Shown: one piece after another, positions 7,332-27,454 of the stretch | How the letters are laid out: each line of letters begins with the position of its first letter | Position numbering within the stretch: position 1 is the stretch's first letter | Source of the DNA: Pyrolobus fumarii 1A | Lineage (GTDB): Archaea; Thermoproteota; Thermoprotei_A; Sulfolobales; Pyrodictiaceae | Direction of reading: 5' to 3' | NCBI RefSeq assembly: GCF_000223395.1 | Contig: NC_015931.1 | Coordinates: 1,410,001 to 1,442,000, forward strand | DNA: 32,000 bases | Notes under the pieces: model-generated | What the model saw: only the letters and a program-made list of their open reading frames with translations | What the model was told of the DNA's origin: nothing | Databases searched by the model: none | Program-made: the position numbers and the translations under genes

Positions 7332-7856
7332 GTGGCCGGTGATCTGGGTTTGACACGCCCATCGCACTTGGCAATCGTACTTTTTACGTTTACTTTAGGC
7401 TTACTGCTCGGCCTAAGTGCCCCCATAAATATATCACAGTTACAAGAGATTGCTAGCTATGCTCTTGCTCTACCACCCGTGGGCTTCATGCTCTACATAC
7501 TTGCAAACAACTTGTTCGTGACACTCATTGCTGTTATAGGTGGCTTGATAGCTGTAACCCCCCTCTTCATAGCATTTGTGAACGGTGTTGTAATAGGCTC
7601 TGTAGTCACCATCGCGACAAGCTATTATTCGCTACCTGAGGTACTCTGGTTGATACTACCGCACGGTGTATTCGAGATACCTGCATTGCTTCTAGCTTGC
7701 AGTCTAGGCCTCGATGTAGCACACGACGTGGTTAACCACGGGTTTATGTACGCCTGGGCTAGGCTCGGAGAAAAATTACAGACGTACATATTAATCATCA
7801 TTTTGCTAATTATCGCTGCTATAATAGAGACGTGCATTGCATACTACAGAGCCTAA
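7332..7856 (+). CDS. SpoIIM-like (DUF95) integral membrane protein
   Basis: Multi-pass hydrophobic protein with the family-typical segments ILANNLFVTL, FVNGVVIG and LPHGVFEIPALLLACSLGL. Confidence 0.7.
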   Translation: MAGDLGLTRPSHLAIVLFTFTLGLLLGLSAPINISQLQEIASYALALPPVGFMLYILANNLFVTLIAVIGGLIAVTPLFIAFVNGVVIGSVVTIATSYYSLPEVLWLILPHGVFEIPALLLACSLGLDVAHDVVNHGFMYAWARLGEKLQTYILIIILLIIAAIIETCIAYYRA

Positions 7857-14900: not shown

Positions 14901-15608
14901 TTACCCACCAATAGCATCTATCACATCGAGTACTTCATTCCTGCACGCCCAGGGCCTGGGCTTACACCTGGCTACACGCTTTAACAAGTTGTACAACACT
15001 CTGCTTATTTTACCACACCGCATCTCGGGATGCCCACCTAATGCGATATACACGGTTAGCCTTCTAGCCTCGTTGCTCACATCCTCTATAGTACCGCACC
15101 CCACCACACCATCGTCAAAATAGTCACGCAGCCTTCCCAGTTCCTGCATAAAGCCTCTGGAAGCCATCCAGAGATGAACCTCGAGATCCTTCACAACTGT
15201 ATATGCTACATGCACTGACCTCAAATCATTATATTCGCAGAGAGCAACAACATAATACTCTTGCGAACCGTGAAGTATGCTATGTGCAGCCTCATGCACT
15301 AACATCGCTCTACGGGTAGACCCTTCAACATTCACAATGTCCTCTACTATGACATGGATACGTGGATATCCTGCCCACGCCTCATGGAACAAGCCACCCT
15401 CATACTCGGCATTAACAACGATGTCATTGTGTACAGGCAGCTTGACATGCCCTCTCGTCTCGTAGATGTGCACCTCAACGTATTCTGGTCGCTCAATTTG
15501 ATACACATCGGTTAATGTGCGAGCAACAAACTCCCTGACAGCCGAATCAACATTGCCATGCTCGATAATGTATACTCCCGGAGCCATTACCATAGATACC
15601 CTTGTCAT
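14901..15608 (-). CDS. predicted zinc metallopeptidase-like protein (HExxH motif), family not recognised
   Basis: 235 aa with MLVHEAAHSILHG (HExxH followed by H/G). ATG start preceded by GGAGGA. Confidence 0.65.
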   Translation of the reverse strand: MTRVSMVMAPGVYIIEHGNVDSAVREFVARTLTDVYQIERPEYVEVHIYETRGHVKLPVHNDIVVNAEYEGGLFHEAWAGYPRIHVIVEDIVNVEGSTRRAMLVHEAAHSILHGSQEYYVVALCEYNDLRSVHVAYTVVKDLEVHLWMASRGFMQELGRLRDYFDDGVVGCGTIEDVSNEARRLTVYIALGGHPEMRCGKISRVLYNLLKRVARCKPRPWACRNEVLDVIDAIGG

Positions 15609-15661
15609 CAGCGAGGTCCTCCATTCATCACGCGCTCAGCACAAATCGGCCTCATCACAAT
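15606..15661 (-). ncRNA. C/D box sRNA (2'-O-methylation guide)
   Basis: The minus strand reads GTGATGA (C, 15658-15652), a 12-nt guide GGCCGATTTGTG, CTGA (D', 15639-15636), GCGC, GTGATGA (C', 15631-15625), a 13-nt guide ATGGAGGACCTCG, then CTGA (D, 15611-15608). All four boxes are canonical and the spacing is canonical. An A/T box TATACCTTATAC (plus 15676-15689) lies about 24 nt upstream. Confidence 0.7.
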
Positions 15662-15760
15662 AGTTGTAAATGCCGTATAAGGTATACAAGCGTGACGCAA
15701 GCTAAACACGATAATACCCCCACTAATACACCTCTATCGTCTAGTGGAGGCCTTACTCTC

Positions 15761-15946
15761 ATGCCATCTAGCCTCATTTCAAAGACGCTGAACATAGACG
15801 ATATACTCGATGTTGAGAGGCGAGGCAACACGTTGATCGTGTACACGCGTGATGGAGAGCTTCTGAACCTTCCATATAACAGCGTAACTGCAAGTCTCTA
15901 CTGGGAGATTAAGATACGAAATCGAAGGAGAGCTTTTGGACTCTAA
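15761..15946 (+). CDS. small hypothetical protein (61 aa)
   Basis: ATG at 15761 preceded by GGAGG 10 nt upstream. The longer ORF-track form (15602..) would overlap the C/D sRNA and has an S/H/T/N-rich N-terminus. A T5 tract at 16017-16021 lies downstream. Confidence 0.35.
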   Translation: MPSSLISKTLNIDDILDVERRGNTLIVYTRDGELLNLPYNSVTASLYWEIKIRNRRRAFGL

Positions 15947-16110
15947 TCTCTGCGAGAAACTACCACTACCACCACTGGCCTGAGGAGACTGCCACCCAGC
16001 CCTGCGTATCTACGTCTTTTTAGCCCTGCTTGAGTCTCGTCTCATTTTCGCTGCTATCAATTTCTTTGCAGCAGCACTAATAGCAAAGTTTTGTGATAAC
16101 CGTGATGCTT

Positions 16111-16126
16111 AGCCTGAATTCAGGCT
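16111..16126. repeat. perfect 16-bp palindrome AGCCTGAATTCAGGCT
   Basis: Read directly from the sequence. It is followed by CTGTTTTTAAAA. Confidence 0.9.
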
Positions 16127-16143
16127 CTGTTTTTAAAATGTGT

Positions 16144-16168
16144 TTTGTATAATGTGCTATTATACAAA
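16144..16168. repeat. AT-rich inverted repeat TTTGTATAAT-gtgct-ATTATACAAA (10-bp arms, 5-nt spacer)
   Basis: Read directly from the sequence. Confidence 0.9.
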
Positions 16169-16243
16169 GGTATGATGTGGTAACAACTCGGTGACGCCGG
16201 GACTACCTAGGAGGGTGGAAGTGGAGGACTCTACTATCCTCGG

Positions 16244-16263
16244 TCCAGTGGAAGCAGGGGGGT
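16244..16263 (+). promoter_or_regulatory. origin recognition box (ORB)-like element TCCAGTGGAAGCAGGGGGGT
   Basis: Dyad TCCA-NN-GGAA followed by a G-string ending in GGGGT. This is the architecture I recall for archaeal Orc1/Cdc6 ORB sites, for example the Aeropyrum CTCCACAGGAAACGGAGGGGT. A partial copy, GTGGAAG, lies 33 bp upstream (16215-16221). Confidence 0.5.
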
Positions 16264-16273
16264 CTGCGAGTGT

Positions 16274-17056
16274 CTATGAGTGGCTGTGCAGCTGATGGCT
16301 TTCTAGACAATCGTCTATCACTCTTCGGGCTTGTTTTGAGAGGCCTATACGCGCTCCCATTCTGCGATCGTGATAGATGTAGATCAGATCCTTAGCCTGT
16401 AGCTTTCTCAGCGTTGATAGTAGCCAGTGATGGTCGGCTGACAGCCTTTCTTGGAGCTGGTCTATGTACAGGTAGGTTTTGCCCCAGGTCGAGTAGTGGT
16501 CGAGTATGGCCTTAAGGACTTCCTTTTCTTCTTCGTCAAGGTTCGGTTCGTAGATGGAATATAGTTGTCGTGCGCAGAACTCCCTCCTTTGTCGTTCGTT
16601 GTCGACTATACTGATACGCTCGGCAATAAACGGCAAAGAATTGCGGTATTGTCCATGTGGGTGATACGCTGTCTTGTCGTTTATTGCCGGGGTTGTAGGA
16701 GCGGCAAGAATCTGACGTGCTAGTATAGCGTAACGGTCGAGTTGACTGTCTGTGTATCTTTGTAGGACTTCGCGGGCGAATTCCTCACCTAGCGGCGTTA
16801 GTCTCCAGTAGCCATTCTCGTATTCGAAGAGGCCTCGTGTCTTCCAATAGCTCAGATAGCTAGAGATGTATCTGCTTGTGAACCCTAGTATCTGTGCTAT
16901 CTCGGCGGCTCTCATGGGTCTTGAGTATAAGAGTACTGCTATGGCTTCGACTATGCGGCTTCGAGGCCCTATTCTTGTCATCTTCTTCCTTTTCTCTTTC
17001 TCTGCTAGTTGAGTGGCGAGAATCTCGGCTATTCTCTGTAGCTCCTTATCGTTCAC
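16274..17056 (-). CDS. double winged-helix DNA-binding protein, WhiP/Cdt1-like candidate replication initiator
   Basis: 260 aa. The N-terminal wHTH is MRAAEIAQILGFTSRYISSYLSYWKTRGLFEYENGYWRLTPLG. The second wHTH-like module is EKEVLKAILDHY...YIDQLQERLSADHHWLLSTLRKLQAKDLIYIYHD. It lies next to the AT-rich/ORB region. The family assignment rests on architecture only. Confidence 0.75.
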   Translation of the reverse strand: MNDKELQRIAEILATQLAEKEKRKKMTRIGPRSRIVEAIAVLLYSRPMRAAEIAQILGFTSRYISSYLSYWKTRGLFEYENGYWRLTPLGEEFAREVLQRYTDSQLDRYAILARQILAAPTTPAINDKTAYHPHGQYRNSLPFIAERISIVDNERQRREFCARQLYSIYEPNLDEEEKEVLKAILDHYSTWGKTYLYIDQLQERLSADHHWLLSTLRKLQAKDLIYIYHDRRMGARIGLSKQARRVIDDCLESHQLHSHS

Positions 17057-17287: not shown

Positions 17288-18235
17288 GTGAGGAGTCTCG
17301 CCGGTCGGCATTTGCTATGGCTTGGCGATTTCGAGCCCTGGGAGATAAGGCGATTTGTGGAGGTAGGGTTGGAGCTCAAGCGTAGATACTATGCGGGTGA
17401 GCGGATAATCCCTGTATTGCGTGGCAAATCTGTAGCCCTGATCTTCGAGAAACCTAGTACAAGAACCCGTGTTAGTATGGAGTTAGCCGTCTGGCAACTT
17501 GGAGGTTATCCAGTGGTGCTTAATGCTAACGAGATGCAGCTCTCTAGAGGCGAGCCCGTGAAGGACACGGCACGTGTACTGTCTAGGTATGTTGATGCAA
17601 TAGCTGCTAGAGTGAAGAAGCATGAGACGCTTGAAGAGATGGCGAGGTATTCGAGTGTCCCAGTGATAAATATGCTGAGCGATTTTTCACACCCGCTTCA
17701 GGCGCTCGCCGATGTAATGACGATATGGGAGCGTTTCGGGCGTGTCGAGGGTGTATCGGTAAGCTATGTGGGTGATTGTGGGAACAATGTCGCGCATAGC
17801 TTGCTACTGGCTAGCGTCGCGCTTGGCGCGAAGGTGCGGCTAGGCTGTCCACGGGAATACAGGCCGGATGCGCGTGTGTTGCGTGCAGCGGAGGAGATGA
17901 GTGCGAAAAGCGGCGGTAGCTTTGAGATATATGATGATCCCGCCGAGGCTGTTAGAGGCGCCGACGTAGTCTATACTGATGTGTGGGTTAGTATGGGTCA
18001 AGAGGGTGAGGCAGAGGTTAGACGGGAGAAGTTACGTCCGTACCAAGTCAATGAGGAGCTAATGAGGTTAGCCTCGAGAAACGCTGTGTTCATGCACTGT
18101 CTTCCCGCTAGACGTGGTGAAGAGGTAACAGAGGATGTTATCGAGAGCCCGAGAAGTATAGTGTGGGAGCAGGCGGAGAACAGGCTACACGTCCAGAAAG
18201 CAGTATTAGCGCTTATTCTGGGCGGACTCTCCTAA
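17288..18235 (+). CDS. argF: ornithine carbamoyltransferase
   Basis: [22 protein letters not shown] and HCLPA motifs. GTG start. TATA-like CTTTATGAA at about 17246-17254. Confidence 0.93.
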
Positions 18236-22750: not shown

Positions 22751-23327
22751 TATTTGCCGGTTATACGAGATTGCCGTTGAGGTTTCTAAACCTAAGCGAG
22801 GTGTCAAGCCAGGTTTCGATCCCGAGCATGTCATAGGGTATATACTGCTAGCTGCTCGTGGCCCAATAGGTAGGCCTCTTGCAGCGAAGGCACTGGGCAT
22901 AGGTGACACAGCTGCTAAAACGATGATACGTAGGCTTCGCGAGATAGGTGTGATAGAAACCCGTGGCAGGGAAGGCTCAAGTTTAAAGCAAGAGCTCAGG
23001 CAGATTGTGGAGAACATACATTTCTGTCAGAACGGTAATTGTATTGGTATCAACATTTGTGGAATTGATGTATGTGAGGCATCACGTGGGCTAAGCAAAG
23101 TGCTCGAGTTGCGTGATAGTCTAGTGAGTCGTGGCGTTACGCCGCTGCTAATACTTTGTTGTTCCTCGGGATTTGTAGCTCCTGGTGCACCTCACGATGT
23201 AGTAGACGGTCTAATATCAAGTTGCTTGGAGTGTGAAGGACGCGACATTTGTGTCGTGCTTGGGGGTGATATCGGGTTAGTCGAAGTTAGCAGAGTAATC
23301 TTGGCTATTGCTAAGGTAGTATGCTAA
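22734..23327 (+). CDS. putative wHTH regulator with a Cys-rich C-terminal domain (possibly the archaeal DUF4443-type)
   Basis: HTH-like segment PLAAKALGIGDTAAKTMIRRLREIGVIETRG, followed by CQNGNCIGINICGIDVC plus CC and CLEC motifs. ATG at 22734, with an upstream TTG at 22716. It overlaps the previous ORF by 17 nt. Confidence 0.6.
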   Translation: MVSECSICRLYEIAVEVSKPKRGVKPGFDPEHVIGYILLAARGPIGRPLAAKALGIGDTAAKTMIRRLREIGVIETRGREGSSLKQELRQIVENIHFCQNGNCIGINICGIDVCEASRGLSKVLELRDSLVSRGVTPLLILCCSSGFVAPGAPHDVVDGLISSCLECEGRDICVVLGGDIGLVEVSRVILAIAKVVC

Positions 23328-23914
23328 TCTTCAGTTGTGATTTCCCTTATGCGTGCAACCCCATCTATCTCCCTGATTATTCTCACAACGGCGGGTGGTA
23401 CTAGGTGCTCCCATGCTCCACCTGCTGCTATAAGACGACGAATGTGCTCGCCTCTAAGCTCGTTACGGTTAAAAGCGGGAGGCTTCTCAACTTTGATGCC
23501 AGCCTCGCGGAAAACACGTGCTATCACAGGGTTCCTCGTTATTATTGATTCAACGGGCGGTACGTGGGTTAACACGTAATGGGCAGCACCTACATGCACC
23601 TCCATGGTCGGCAATGTCGCTGTTATGATCCTTGATAAGTCGATGCCAGCTTCTCGTAGAGCTTCGCGTATCATCCAGATGCGTTCACCTGCGGTGAAAG
23701 GGTTGCGGGGGGTGTGACTCTCGCTCGCCATGCCTACCATTATGACTATCTCATCGTATTTTCGCTCCTCTAGAGCCCACTTGACGACCATGAGGTGGCC
23801 GAGATGGAATGGCTGGAAGCGCCCGAAGAACAACGTGCGTCTAACCAATACGGGTATCCCCGGCTGCAGGCCGGGTGGTGAGTGATAGTGGATAAAGGTG
23901 GTGTATCGTGGCAC
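23324..23914 (-). CDS. nicotinamide-nucleotide adenylyltransferase (archaeal NMNAT)
   Basis: GRFQPFHLGH nucleotidyltransferase motif (HxGH type) close to the N-terminus, and family-typical length. The longest ORF starts at GTG 23914. TTG 23848 (LVRRTLFFGRFQPFHLGH) would give the usual short N-terminus. Confidence 0.88.
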   Translation of the reverse strand: MPRYTTFIHYHSPPGLQPGIPVLVRRTLFFGRFQPFHLGHLMVVKWALEERKYDEIVIMVGMASESHTPRNPFTAGERIWMIREALREAGIDLSRIITATLPTMEVHVGAAHYVLTHVPPVESIITRNPVIARVFREAGIKVEKPPAFNRNELRGEHIRRLIAAGGAWEHLVPPAVVRIIREIDGVARIREITTED

Positions 23915-25041
23915 GCATACTATTCTTGGTAAACCCTATTGCGGGGTTAGGAGGGCCTAGAGGATTACGTGGTACTGATGAGGATATTGGTAGAAGGTTG
24001 TTGCTAGAGTATCGTAGCGAGCCTCCAGCTTACGCTCGTGCAAGGAGATTCCTTGCGAGGTTGAGAAAGCTAGGGTGTGTCAAGAAGATAATGTCTGTGG
24101 CTGGCGGCATGGGTGCCGAGTTGGCTCGTAGTGAGGGTTTTGACGTAGAAGTTGTTTACGAGTCTCGTGAGTGGCCTACGCGTAGCACGGACACAGTTTC
24201 TGCCGTTATGGAGGGAATCAGCAAAGGCGTAGACATTGTAGTGTTTGTCGGTGGCGATGGTACGGCTAGGCTTGTTGCGGACGCGCTCGTTAAAATGAAT
24301 GCGATTGACCGGATAGTTGTGTTGGGTGTCCCGGCTGGAGTCAAGATGTACAGCTCGATATTCGGTGTAAACCCTGAGGCTGCAGCAGATGCACTGTGTA
24401 ACTTCCTTGTTGGCCGGGCTGTTGCGTGTGAAGGTGAGGTGGTCGATGTTGATGAGGAGGCTTTTAGGCGAGACGAGCTGCGTCTAAAGCTATACGCGCT
24501 AGTAAAGAGCATATGTGCGCCAGGTGTTGTCGGTATATCGAAGCAGCCTAGTATATCAACTAGTGAGGAAGAGGAGAACAAGCTAGCCATAGCGAGATAC
24601 ATTGTCGAGCGAATGGAGAAGTGTAGTCTTTACATATTAGGCCCGGGGTCGACTGTAGCAGCGATTGCTAAAGTACTAGGTAAGCCGAAGACATTACTCG
24701 GTGTTGATGTGTATCATGGCCATGTTCCAGTGGCGCTTAACGTTGACGAGGAGACGCTTTACAAACTGGTTACGAACCATCCAGGAAAGAAGTACATAAT
24801 AGTCACGCCTATAGGAGGGCAGGGTTTCATATTAGGTAGAGGAAATCAACAAATATCTCCACGTGTGATACGCGCCGTTGGAGTAGACAATGTGATAGTG
24901 GTTGCTACTTGGAGTAAGATTCGCTCACTTCGTTACAGGTTAAGGGTGGATACTGGCGATCCAGAGTTAGACGACGCTCTTAGAGGGTATAGGCGTGTGG
25001 TGGTCGATTATAACGAGGAAGTTGTTGCTAAGGTTGAGTAG
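23908..25041 (+). CDS. ATP-NAD kinase-like protein (COG3199-type predicted NAD kinase)
   Basis: VVFVGGDGTARL GGDGT motif of the NAD kinase / diacylglycerol kinase fold. 377 aa. GTG start preceded by AAGGTGGTG (SD). Confidence 0.75.
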   Translation: MARILFLVNPIAGLGGPRGLRGTDEDIGRRLLLEYRSEPPAYARARRFLARLRKLGCVKKIMSVAGGMGAELARSEGFDVEVVYESREWPTRSTDTVSAVMEGISKGVDIVVFVGGDGTARLVADALVKMNAIDRIVVLGVPAGVKMYSSIFGVNPEAAADALCNFLVGRAVACEGEVVDVDEEAFRRDELRLKLYALVKSICAPGVVGISKQPSISTSEEEENKLAIARYIVERMEKCSLYILGPGSTVAAIAKVLGKPKTLLGVDVYHGHVPVALNVDEETLYKLVTNHPGKKYIIVTPIGGQGFILGRGNQQISPRVIRAVGVDNVIVVATWSKIRSLRYRLRVDTGDPELDDALRGYRRVVVDYNEEVVAKVE

Positions 25042-26488: not shown

Positions 26489-26575
26489 GCTTTACTGCAC
26501 CGGGTTGAAGTAAGCGAAGATACCAGAGTGAGATAAAGGACTTTGGCTATAGCAGTCTCCTGCTGCAAACTTGAG

Positions 26576-27454
26576 ATGAGACTCATGTTGGCGAGGCTGG
26601 GTGGACACCTAGCAATTGTAGAAGCGTTGAAGTTGACAAAGCCTTTGCAAACTATGATGCTCCTTGTAGGGATGTACGCCGGCTTCTACGCGGGTGGTGG
26701 TATCGTCAAACCGCTATGGTTTCACATACTGATAGGTCTGCTCGGTTTCCTCGCGATAGCTGCTACGACCGCAGTCAACATGGTGTATGATGTTGACATT
26801 GATAGTATCATGGAGCGTACACGTAACAGGCCGTTGCCTCGAGGCGTATTTAGTAGGCAGCGGGTGCTCATTCTGGCGACAATCACAATAGTGTTGACAG
26901 CAATAACATCTTGTATACTTGTTAACGTCTACTATGCGGCTGCGATAGTAATAGGTTATCTTTCAGACATCTATGCGTATACTCTCCTTACGAAAAGACA
27001 TACATGGCTAAGTGTGTTTGCAGGTTCGATTGCGGGGGCTTCACCAGCCGTTGGGGGCTATGCTGCTGCAAGGGGTTATGTTGATGTTGATGGTCTGCTT
27101 ATAGGTGCTCTGATAGTTGCGTGGATACCTGCGCACATCTGGTCACTAGTGATACATTATGATGAAGATTATAGGCGTGCACGAATACCAATGCTTCCAG
27201 TGATCAAAGGGTATAGGGTAGGTGTGGTAGGCTCTACGTTGAGTATAGTGTTGACAGTTGCTATAGCAACTGCCATATACGTTAGAGGGCTCATGAGCCC
27301 GGAGTTCTATATCGCGGGTGTTGCTGCGGGTAGCGCTGCTGTGTTAATGCTATTGAGAAGGTGTAGGCCGGGCAGTTGCATTAAGACGTTTAGAGTGGTT
27401 AATATGGTGCTTATGCTCTTTCTCCTAGGCGCGGTGCTGTCTAGTATTCTCTGA
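26576..27454 (+). CDS. ctaB: protoheme IX farnesyltransferase (heme O synthase), UbiA superfamily
   Basis: LKLTKP N-terminal motif and NMVYDVDIDSIMERTRNRPLPRG (NxxxDxxxD...MxRT..RPL). 9 TM. Alternative starts at TTG 26543 and ATG 26585. Confidence 0.85.
   Translation: MRLMLARLGGHLAIVEALKLTKPLQTMMLLVGMYAGFYAGGGIVKPLWFHILIGLLGFLAIAATTAVNMVYDVDIDSIMERTRNRPLPRGVFSRQRVLILATITIVLTAITSCILVNVYYAAAIVIGYLSDIYAYTLLTKRHTWLSVFAGSIAGASPAVGGYAAARGYVDVDGLLIGALIVAWIPAHIWSLVIHYDEDYRRARIPMLPVIKGYRVGVVGSTLSIVLTVAIATAIYVRGLMSPEFYIAGVAAGSAAVLMLLRRCRPGSCIKTFRVVNMVLMLFLLGAVLSSIL

Follow-up and report, generated by a model that had tools for sequence, protein, structure and literature searches.

Where does Pyrolobus fumarii, an archaeon that grows at up to 113 °C, begin to copy its chromosome? 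A 32,000-nt window of the P. fumarii 1A chromosome (NC_015931.1), to which all coordinates below refer, raises this question at a 327-bp gap (15947-16273) that lies between the stop codons of two convergent genes, a 61-amino-acid open reading frame (ORF) on the plus strand and whiP on the minus strand. The initial annotation of the window proposed this gap as a replication origin beside a WhiP-like gene, as at Sulfolobus oriC3, and comparison with other whiP loci supports the proposal: the neighbouring gene is a WhiP orthologue by homology, the gap lies directly downstream of it, and it contains the origin-associated ucm ('uncharacterized motif'). Very probably, the gap is a WhiP-type origin, the P. 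fumarii representative of a class that includes Sulfolobus oriC3 and Aeropyrum pernix oriC2. Direct support for this reading comes from the orthology of whiP, from where the gap lies, from motifs that are both present and conserved, and from signals in base composition and skew. The same 327 nt are left uncalled by independent gene calls on identical public contigs, and to describe them as the largest non-coding stretch of the window is reasonable, the other candidate gaps being shorter or holding small ORFs.

The gene that the gap abuts (16274-17056, minus strand) encodes a 260-amino-acid protein identical (100%) to Pyrfu_1524 of P. fumarii 1A, which is labelled 'Replication initiator protein WhiP' in UniRef. 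Pyrfu_1524 shares 51% identity with A. pernix WhiP, and its family also includes the named WhiP proteins of Pyrodictium, Stetteria, Sulfurisphaera tokodaii, Saccharolobus, Metallosphaera, Acidianus, Sulfolobus acidocaldarius and Ignisphaera (E-values from 1e-44 to 1e-83). The AlphaFold model of the protein (37 homologues; mean predicted local distance difference test score, pLDDT, 84.5) has two winged-helix domains, at residues 34-86 and 175-239, which are connected by long helices and a disordered linker (119-142). This agrees with the earlier description of a double winged-helix gene. A fold search of the PDB with the model returned generic MarR-type winged-helix matches only, which are uninformative on relatedness to Cdt1 or Rep, and none of the Pfam or NCBIfam models scored above threshold against Pyrfu_1524. 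Homology to characterised WhiP proteins and the predicted tandem winged-helix arrangement together indicate that the gene is the WhiP orthologue, and thus a predicted origin initiator.

In Sulfolobus, oriC3 maps to the intergenic stretch directly downstream of whiP, and its firing needs WhiP and no Orc1/Cdc6 protein (PMC3607249). The Pyrolobus gap, which spans the whole interval 3′ of whiP, has the same position relative to the gene. Of the two A. pernix origins, one is the counterpart of Sulfolobus oriC1 and the other of the WhiP-dependent oriC3; marker-frequency analysis (MFA) confirmed the activity of each (PMC10769869). Dhanaraju et al. (2025, PMC12141716) report the ucm from each of the three Sulfolobus origins and from both of those of A. 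pernix; it is essential for oriC1 of S. islandicus, and its binding protein, UBP, makes contact with MCM. The Ori-Finder-Arch preprint (10.64898/2026.08.15.744077) formalises the WhiP-type oriC as IR(+)/ucm/IR(-) beside whiP, in which the inverted repeat (IR) is TACTACTACTAC and the ucm is TTATACAAAC with at most one mismatch. By this definition the gap carries two ucm copies, at 16143-16152 and 16160-16169, with one mismatch each.

These copies coincide with an AT-only inverted repeat, TTTGTATAAT/ATTATACAAA (16144-16153/16159-16168), which is present as first reported, is perfect, and had been treated as a minor feature although it is the diagnostic element of the gap. The repeat consists of two inverted copies of ATTATACAAAC, the 11-nt form of the ucm, each matching at 10 of 11 positions. 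Copy 1, a predicted UBP site, reads ATTATACAAAA (16143-16153, minus strand), and copy 2, 5 bp away and inverted relative to it, reads ATTATACAAAG (16159-16169, plus strand). No other ucm site with one mismatch or fewer exists in the 32 kb, where 0.45 would be expected, and the two copies stand 105 and 121 nt past the whiP stop, within the range of other loci. A weaker ucm-like word, with two mismatches, lies at 16129-16139.

In whiP-downstream sequence extracted from 75 non-redundant loci (cultured genomes and 80 metagenome loci), ATTATACAAAC or its complement is present in almost every gap: a ucm with at most one mismatch is found within 400 nt past the whiP stop in 67 of the 75 loci, across Sulfolobales and Desulfurococcales (median position, 87 nt). 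By comparison, such sites number 0.016 per 400 nt in the flanking 382 kb of these loci. Pyrolobus alone has two copies at this threshold. Which way the ucm points relative to whiP depends on the lineage, being whiP-sense in Sulfolobales, Ignisphaera and Pyrodictiaceae (46 sites) and antisense in Aeropyrum-like, Caldisphaera-like and other Desulfurococcales (22 sites; loci L009-L088); Pyrolobus carries both orientations.

The ucm pair is embedded in an AT-rich core (16037-16186) that is a candidate duplex-unwinding region. The G+C content of this core, 35.3%, is the lowest of any 150-nt segment in the 32 kb, and the lowest 90-nt value, 31.1%, falls at 16079-16168. The hand counts of the initial annotation were accurate (16081-16170, 33.3%; 16127-16168, 21.4%; whole window, 50.9%), as were its GTTTTGT words (16088-16094 and 16142-16148). 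Its statement that the gap has the lowest G+C holds at 90 and 150 nt; at 42 nt the gap minimum is tied by 7771-7812, and the gap as a whole, at 48%, is not unusual.

Nucleotide skew and gene orientation also change at this locus. Within the window, cumulative GC skew reaches its minimum at 15.5-16.5 kb. Because coding strand confounds cumulative skew, we fitted a regression of third-codon-position GC skew, gene by gene, with coding strand and gap side as predictors (37 genes, 32 kb). The side term (0.125, t = 5.2) dominates the strand term (0.037, t = 1.5), and third-position skew changes sign at 14.9-16.1 kb regardless of coding strand. A scan of all inter-gene breakpoints favoured 16110, with 14909 and 15684 almost as good. 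Left of the gap 76% of coding bases are on the minus strand and right of it 72% are on the plus strand, so that genes point away from the gap. To the right, G exceeds C on the plus strand, which is the polarity expected of an origin and not of a terminus.

A further likeness to mapped WhiP-type origins is found at the gap border far from whiP. The gaps of Saccharolobus (L090) and S. acidocaldarius (L091) read ACTACTACTA ... ATTATACAAAC ... GTAGTAGTAGTAATCTATTTAA (the right arm is also written GTAGTAGTAGTAAT), which is the published IR(+)/ucm/IR(-) layout. In Pyrolobus the distal arm AACTACCACTACCACCACTGGCCTGAGGA (15958-15986, plus strand) contains the TAC-triplet repeat TACCACTACCAC (15961-15972), which agrees with TACTACTACTAC at 10 of 12 positions and is the putative inverted-repeat element of WhiP-type origins. 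This arm aligns with GTAGTTGTGGTAGT of Hyperthermus and GTAGTTGTTGTAG of Pyrodictium abyssi, and a 24-nt inverted repeat (18/24) ties 15963-15986 to 16237-16260, joining both borders of the gap. A direct 8-mer, TCTGCGAG, also occurs at both borders; we disregarded it, as about 0.8 such pairs are expected by our own estimate.

WhiP-binding sites are predicted inside the whiP ORF as well. Three CAATAAACGACAA-type repeats lie at 16589-16689 (minus strand), two of them direct copies exactly 85 nt apart (16674-16689 and 16589-16604) and one an inverted copy between them (16621-16636) that is 15/16 complementary. In 30 of the 75 whiP ORFs, from Sulfolobales to Pyrodictiaceae, the best internal repeat has this same layout, an 85-nt spacing and an inverted copy in the middle. 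They include the ORFs of S. acidocaldarius, P. abyssi and A. pernix, the last with a perfect 15-mer pair, and examples lie at L091 3222-3327, L006 5378-5477 and L008 5375-5481. In S. islandicus, chromatin immunoprecipitation (ChIP) places a WhiP peak within the WhiP ORF itself, on repeats footprinted with nanomolar affinity (Samson et al., PMC3607249). Judged by their sequence and placement, the Pyrolobus repeats are the counterpart of these WhiP-binding repeats. They occupy codons 123-157, covering part of the disordered linker and encoding the conserved N.K and L.FIA surroundings, and the predicted DNA-binding site and the coding sequence appear to occupy the same bases.

At the border next to whiP, the proximal arm (16237-16263, plus strand) contains a box, TCCAGTGGAAGCAGGGGGGT (16244-16263), that resembles an archaeal origin recognition box (ORB), with its G-string toward whiP and its dyad pointing into the gap. 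Both the box and a GTGGAAG copy 33 nt upstream, at 16215, are present as initially annotated. The box invites the alternative that the locus is an Orc1/Cdc6-type origin, of the form ORB, duplex-unwinding element (DUE), ORB, at which Orc1-1 on the box is the initiator and the adjacency of whiP is incidental. The likeness itself exceeds chance. A pattern fixed beforehand from the literature (TCCAGTGGAAACNNNGGGGT) joins the consensus dyad to GGGGT through a 3-nt spacer, the spacing of the A. pernix 22-mer. It matches 16244-16263 only, with one mismatch, where 0.02 matches are expected at up to three mismatches. The 22-mer in question, TCTCCACAGGAAACGGAGGGGT, is one that we take to be A. pernix ORB4. 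The box matches this oligonucleotide, printed in PMC5376975, at 15 of 22 positions ungapped, and it also resembles the archaeal ORB consensus CTTCCAGTGGAAACGAAAGGGGT; the exact A. pernix ORB4 20-mer has no match in the fetched whiP loci.

Comparison across loci indicates what kind of element the box is. Across the whiP loci (468 kb), a relaxed form of the pattern matches four times. These matches come from the cultured Pyrodictiaceae Pyrolobus, Hyperthermus, P. abyssi and Pyrodictium occultum, and each lies 7-32 nt past the whiP stop in the same orientation, whereas the other ~70 whiP gaps contain no ORB-like box. The columns ACCCC, GCT.C and CTGGA (ACCCC..GCT.C..CTGGA) are invariant. Since the matches are limited to these four genomes and keep the same place and orientation, the box is, on the strength of this comparison, a conserved Pyrodictiaceae-specific element, not one general to WhiP-type origins. 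The dyad TCCA.TGGA, however, is complete in Pyrolobus alone, with half of it kept in Hyperthermus and both Pyrodictium species. Thus, the ORB-like layout that the initial annotation described stands as a match beyond chance and as an element conserved in syntenic gaps of relatives, a check that it had suggested, but not as an intact dyad outside Pyrolobus. A further point against a plain ORB is that the G-string of the box falls on what looks, in Hyperthermus, like a degenerate CTACCAC arm.

On this evidence, an Orc1/Cdc6-type origin is quite unlikely. The two-ORB architecture calls for at least two inverted ORBs flanking an AT-rich DUE, and the gap has a single ORB-like box, the only convincing copy in the first description too; its inverted partner, GCCAGTGGTGGTAGTGG, has neither G-string nor dyad and reads as a TAC-repeat arm. 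No ORF in the window contains an Orc1/Cdc6 domain, again as first stated, so no orc1/cdc6 gene is nearby; such an adjacent gene is usual, not universal, and is also missing at the A. pernix and Hyperthermus butylicus origins. According to the literature oriC3 is without an ORB or mini-ORB. S. solfataricus Orc1-1 nevertheless binds oriC3 in vitro (PMC3607249), which would fit a role for Orc1-1 at the Pyrolobus box, but oriC3 fires in S. islandicus without any Orc1 protein.

Several points weigh against the WhiP-type origin that we favour. The proximal TAC arm is not recognisable, its best match to TACTACTACTAC being 8/12 (four mismatches), the level of the orientation controls, so that of the two inverted repeats expected around the ucm only the distal one rises above them. 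Both ucm copies differ from ATTATACAAAC at the last base, the distal arm is 171 nt from the ucm in place of ~40 nt in Sulfolobales, and the gap is 327 bp long in place of ~190 bp. The ucm alone is not an origin mark, because UBP has 329 ChIP peaks genome-wide in S. islandicus (PMC12141716). The skew analysis draws on a small sample, 37 genes in 32 kb, with breakpoints at 14909, 15684 and 16110 that fit almost equally well. Finally, a literature search found no paper on P. fumarii origins.

The degenerate proximal arm, the two imperfect ucm copies and the widened spacing would also suit a relic, that is, a WhiP-type origin whose sequence is kept but which is silent, serving for example WhiP autoregulation or as a UBP chromatin site; UBP and WhiP sites do have non-origin roles in Sulfolobus. 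We consider a relic highly unlikely, given that third-position skew and gene orientation switch here, which needs long-term fork divergence, that whiP is intact and retains its intragenic repeats, and that in each of the two orders tested the orthologous origin is active.

Not every feature of the gap appears to belong to an origin. The 16-bp palindrome AGCCTGAATTCAGGCT is present at 16111-16126 as the initial annotation stated, but the role in the origin that it was given does not hold up: perfect palindromes of this length are at chance level (0.53 expected per window, and at least one in 41% of shuffles), the palindrome has no counterpart in relatives, and it is terminator-like. It is probably not an origin element. 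With the CTGTTTTT that follows, it makes up the sole terminator-like site of 15500-16600, oriented for plus-strand transcripts of the small ORF. The longest palindrome of the window is a perfect one of 18 bp, CAGTTGCTATAGCAACTG (27255-27272), in or at the end of a UbiA-family ORF (26543-27454). An RNA gene in the gap was considered and rejected, as the window yields neither tRNAs nor Rfam matches that reach gathering score; a permissive Rfam scan of the gap gave one meaningless miRNA match, on the ucm inverted repeat. An ordinary convergent spacer, in which terminators of whiP and the small ORF account for the AT-richness and palindromes, would agree with the convergent flanking genes and with a chance-level palindrome and T-run resembling a terminator, yet it is exceedingly improbable, as no RNA family matches inside the gap and the ucm pair, the ucm at this position in 67/75 loci of two orders, the TAC arm, the conserved box and the skew switch would all go unexplained.

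If the gap is a WhiP-type origin, its operation can be sketched by analogy. From Sulfolobus and Aeropyrum, we infer that WhiP and UBP bind at the gap, that MCM is loaded and that the origin fires there. WhiP, encoded beside the gap, would bind the repeats in its own ORF (16589-16689) and the border arms (15958-15986 and ~16208-16263), and the nucleoid protein UBP would bind the inverted ucm pair (16143-16169) within the AT-rich core. MCM would then be recruited, the DNA would open in the 16.04-16.19 kb core, and forks would depart both ways. The proximal ORB-like box may provide an additional site for Orc1-1, which is the least certain step. A bolder version, conceivable though doubtful, is a hybrid origin of Pyrodictiaceae in which an Orc1-1 box replaced the ancestral proximal TAC arm, leaving Orc1/Cdc6 on one side and WhiP on the other, with two inverted UBP sites between them in Pyrolobus. 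In such a hybrid, two unrelated initiators would each load one MCM hexamer.

This kind of origin is already known, and the present member was foreseeable from the rule of whiP plus ucm. What is modestly new is the duplicated inverted ucm, the ORB-like box in place of the proximal TAC arm in Pyrodictiaceae, and the 85-nt repeat geometry across orders. The locus offers a precise origin candidate for an organism at so high a growth temperature. In addition, the WhiP/ucm module, including the 85-nt-spaced whiP repeats, is conserved across Sulfolobales, Desulfurococcales, Ignisphaera and Pyrodictiaceae, and the Pyrodictiaceae-specific box could reveal whether Orc1 and WhiP cooperate at one origin.

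Other elements of the gap and its surroundings recur among relatives. A second purine-rich box, CCTAGGAGGGTGGAAGTGGAGGACT (16208-16232, plus strand), holds the GTGGAAG half-copy; in whiP sense it reads CTCCACTTCCACCCTCC, and by eye it resembles CT(T/C)CCACCCCTAC past the Pyrodictium whiP stop, to which it may be homologous. Many whiP gaps of Pyrodictiaceae-like type have the inverted repeat GGTATTCTTGC(N4-5)GGGAATACC in the interval that separates the post-stop box from the ucm. In Aeropyrum-like and Acidilobales-like gaps this place is taken by (A)TATTATGGT, and the Pyrolobus counterpart is only a degenerate GGTAGTCCCGGCGTCACC. Elements at this place were noted at L007 5808-5833, L008 5829-5853, L092 3810-3835, L001 3341-3362 and L002 4954-4976.

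The small ORF that bounds the gap (15761-15946, plus strand), convergent with whiP, is conserved and was also called as a gene independently. Its basic C-terminus, LYWE(V/I)KIRNRRRAFGL, is common to Hyperthermus and P. abyssi, and searches of Pfam, NCBIfam and the PDB gave nothing informative for the ORF. This ORF and the 108-amino-acid gene downstream of Saccharolobus oriC3 were both considered as UBP and set aside, there being no PDB sequence match. Ornithine carbamoyltransferase (OTCase) and NAD kinase flank whiP in Pyrolobus and Sulfolobales (window 17288-18235 and 23324-25041; L089-L091 277-2916). A CggR_N/DUF4443-like gene lies near whiP in Sulfolobales (L089-L091), Hyperthermus and P. 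abyssi, and an Nre-family gene does so in Sulfolobales, Aeropyrum, Hyperthermus and Pyrodictium. On the other side of the small ORF is an unannotated C/D box small RNA (sRNA; 15606-15662, minus strand) that reads GTGATGA, a 12-nt guide, CTGA, GCGC, GTGATGA, a 13-nt guide and CTGA. In Rfam, archaeal C/D families match it at full length but below threshold (sR2, E = 0.003), and the boxes and both guides are conserved in Hyperthermus, P. abyssi and one Desulfurococcales metagenome-assembled genome. Because this sRNA overlaps the ATG listed at 15608 for a 235-amino-acid ORF (14901-15608), that start is probably wrong.

One of the closest known systems is oriC3 of Sulfolobus and Saccharolobus. Both that origin and the Pyrolobus gap lie directly downstream of an orthologous whiP that carries 85-nt-spaced repeats, with OTCase and NAD kinase nearby; in both, the AT-rich centre holds the ucm and the far border a GTAG/CTAC triplet-repeat arm. 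The Pyrolobus gap is longer (327 against ~190 bp), with two inverted ucm copies in place of one, a G+C-rich ORB-like box in place of the proximal TAC arm, and a distal arm that is richer in G+C (TACCACTACCAC) and farther from the ucm (171 against ~40 nt). Whereas oriC3 has been mapped experimentally, the Pyrolobus gap is known from sequence alone. A. pernix oriC2, confirmed as active by MFA (PMC10769869), comes from the same order-level lineage and likewise lies in the gap downstream of a whiP whose product is 51% identical, with a compact, palindromic ucm-like TTTTGTATCATTACAAAC; unlike Pyrolobus, it has CTACTAGTATCTACTACAA past the stop, without a TCCA..GGAA..GGGGT box, and other downstream neighbour genes. 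Sulfolobus oriC1 (ORB3-DUE/ucm-ORB2, Orc1-1-dependent) shares a ucm in an AT-rich region between initiator sites and an ORB dyad with G-string like that at 16244-16263, but it requires two inverted ORBs and lies beside orc1-1, in contrast to the one ORB-like box of Pyrolobus, which has no orc1 gene and whiP in its place. The syntenic gaps of H. butylicus, P. abyssi and P. occultum share one order of elements with Pyrolobus, running from the whiP stop through the ACCCC..GCTTC..CTGGA box, TTTATACAAAC and a GTAGTTGTGGTAGT-type arm to the small ORF. They differ in having one ucm and the GGTATTCTTGC..GGGAATACC inverted repeat, which is absent or degenerate in Pyrolobus, while the perfect ORB dyad and the duplicated ucm set Pyrolobus apart from the Hyperthermus and Pyrodictium gaps.

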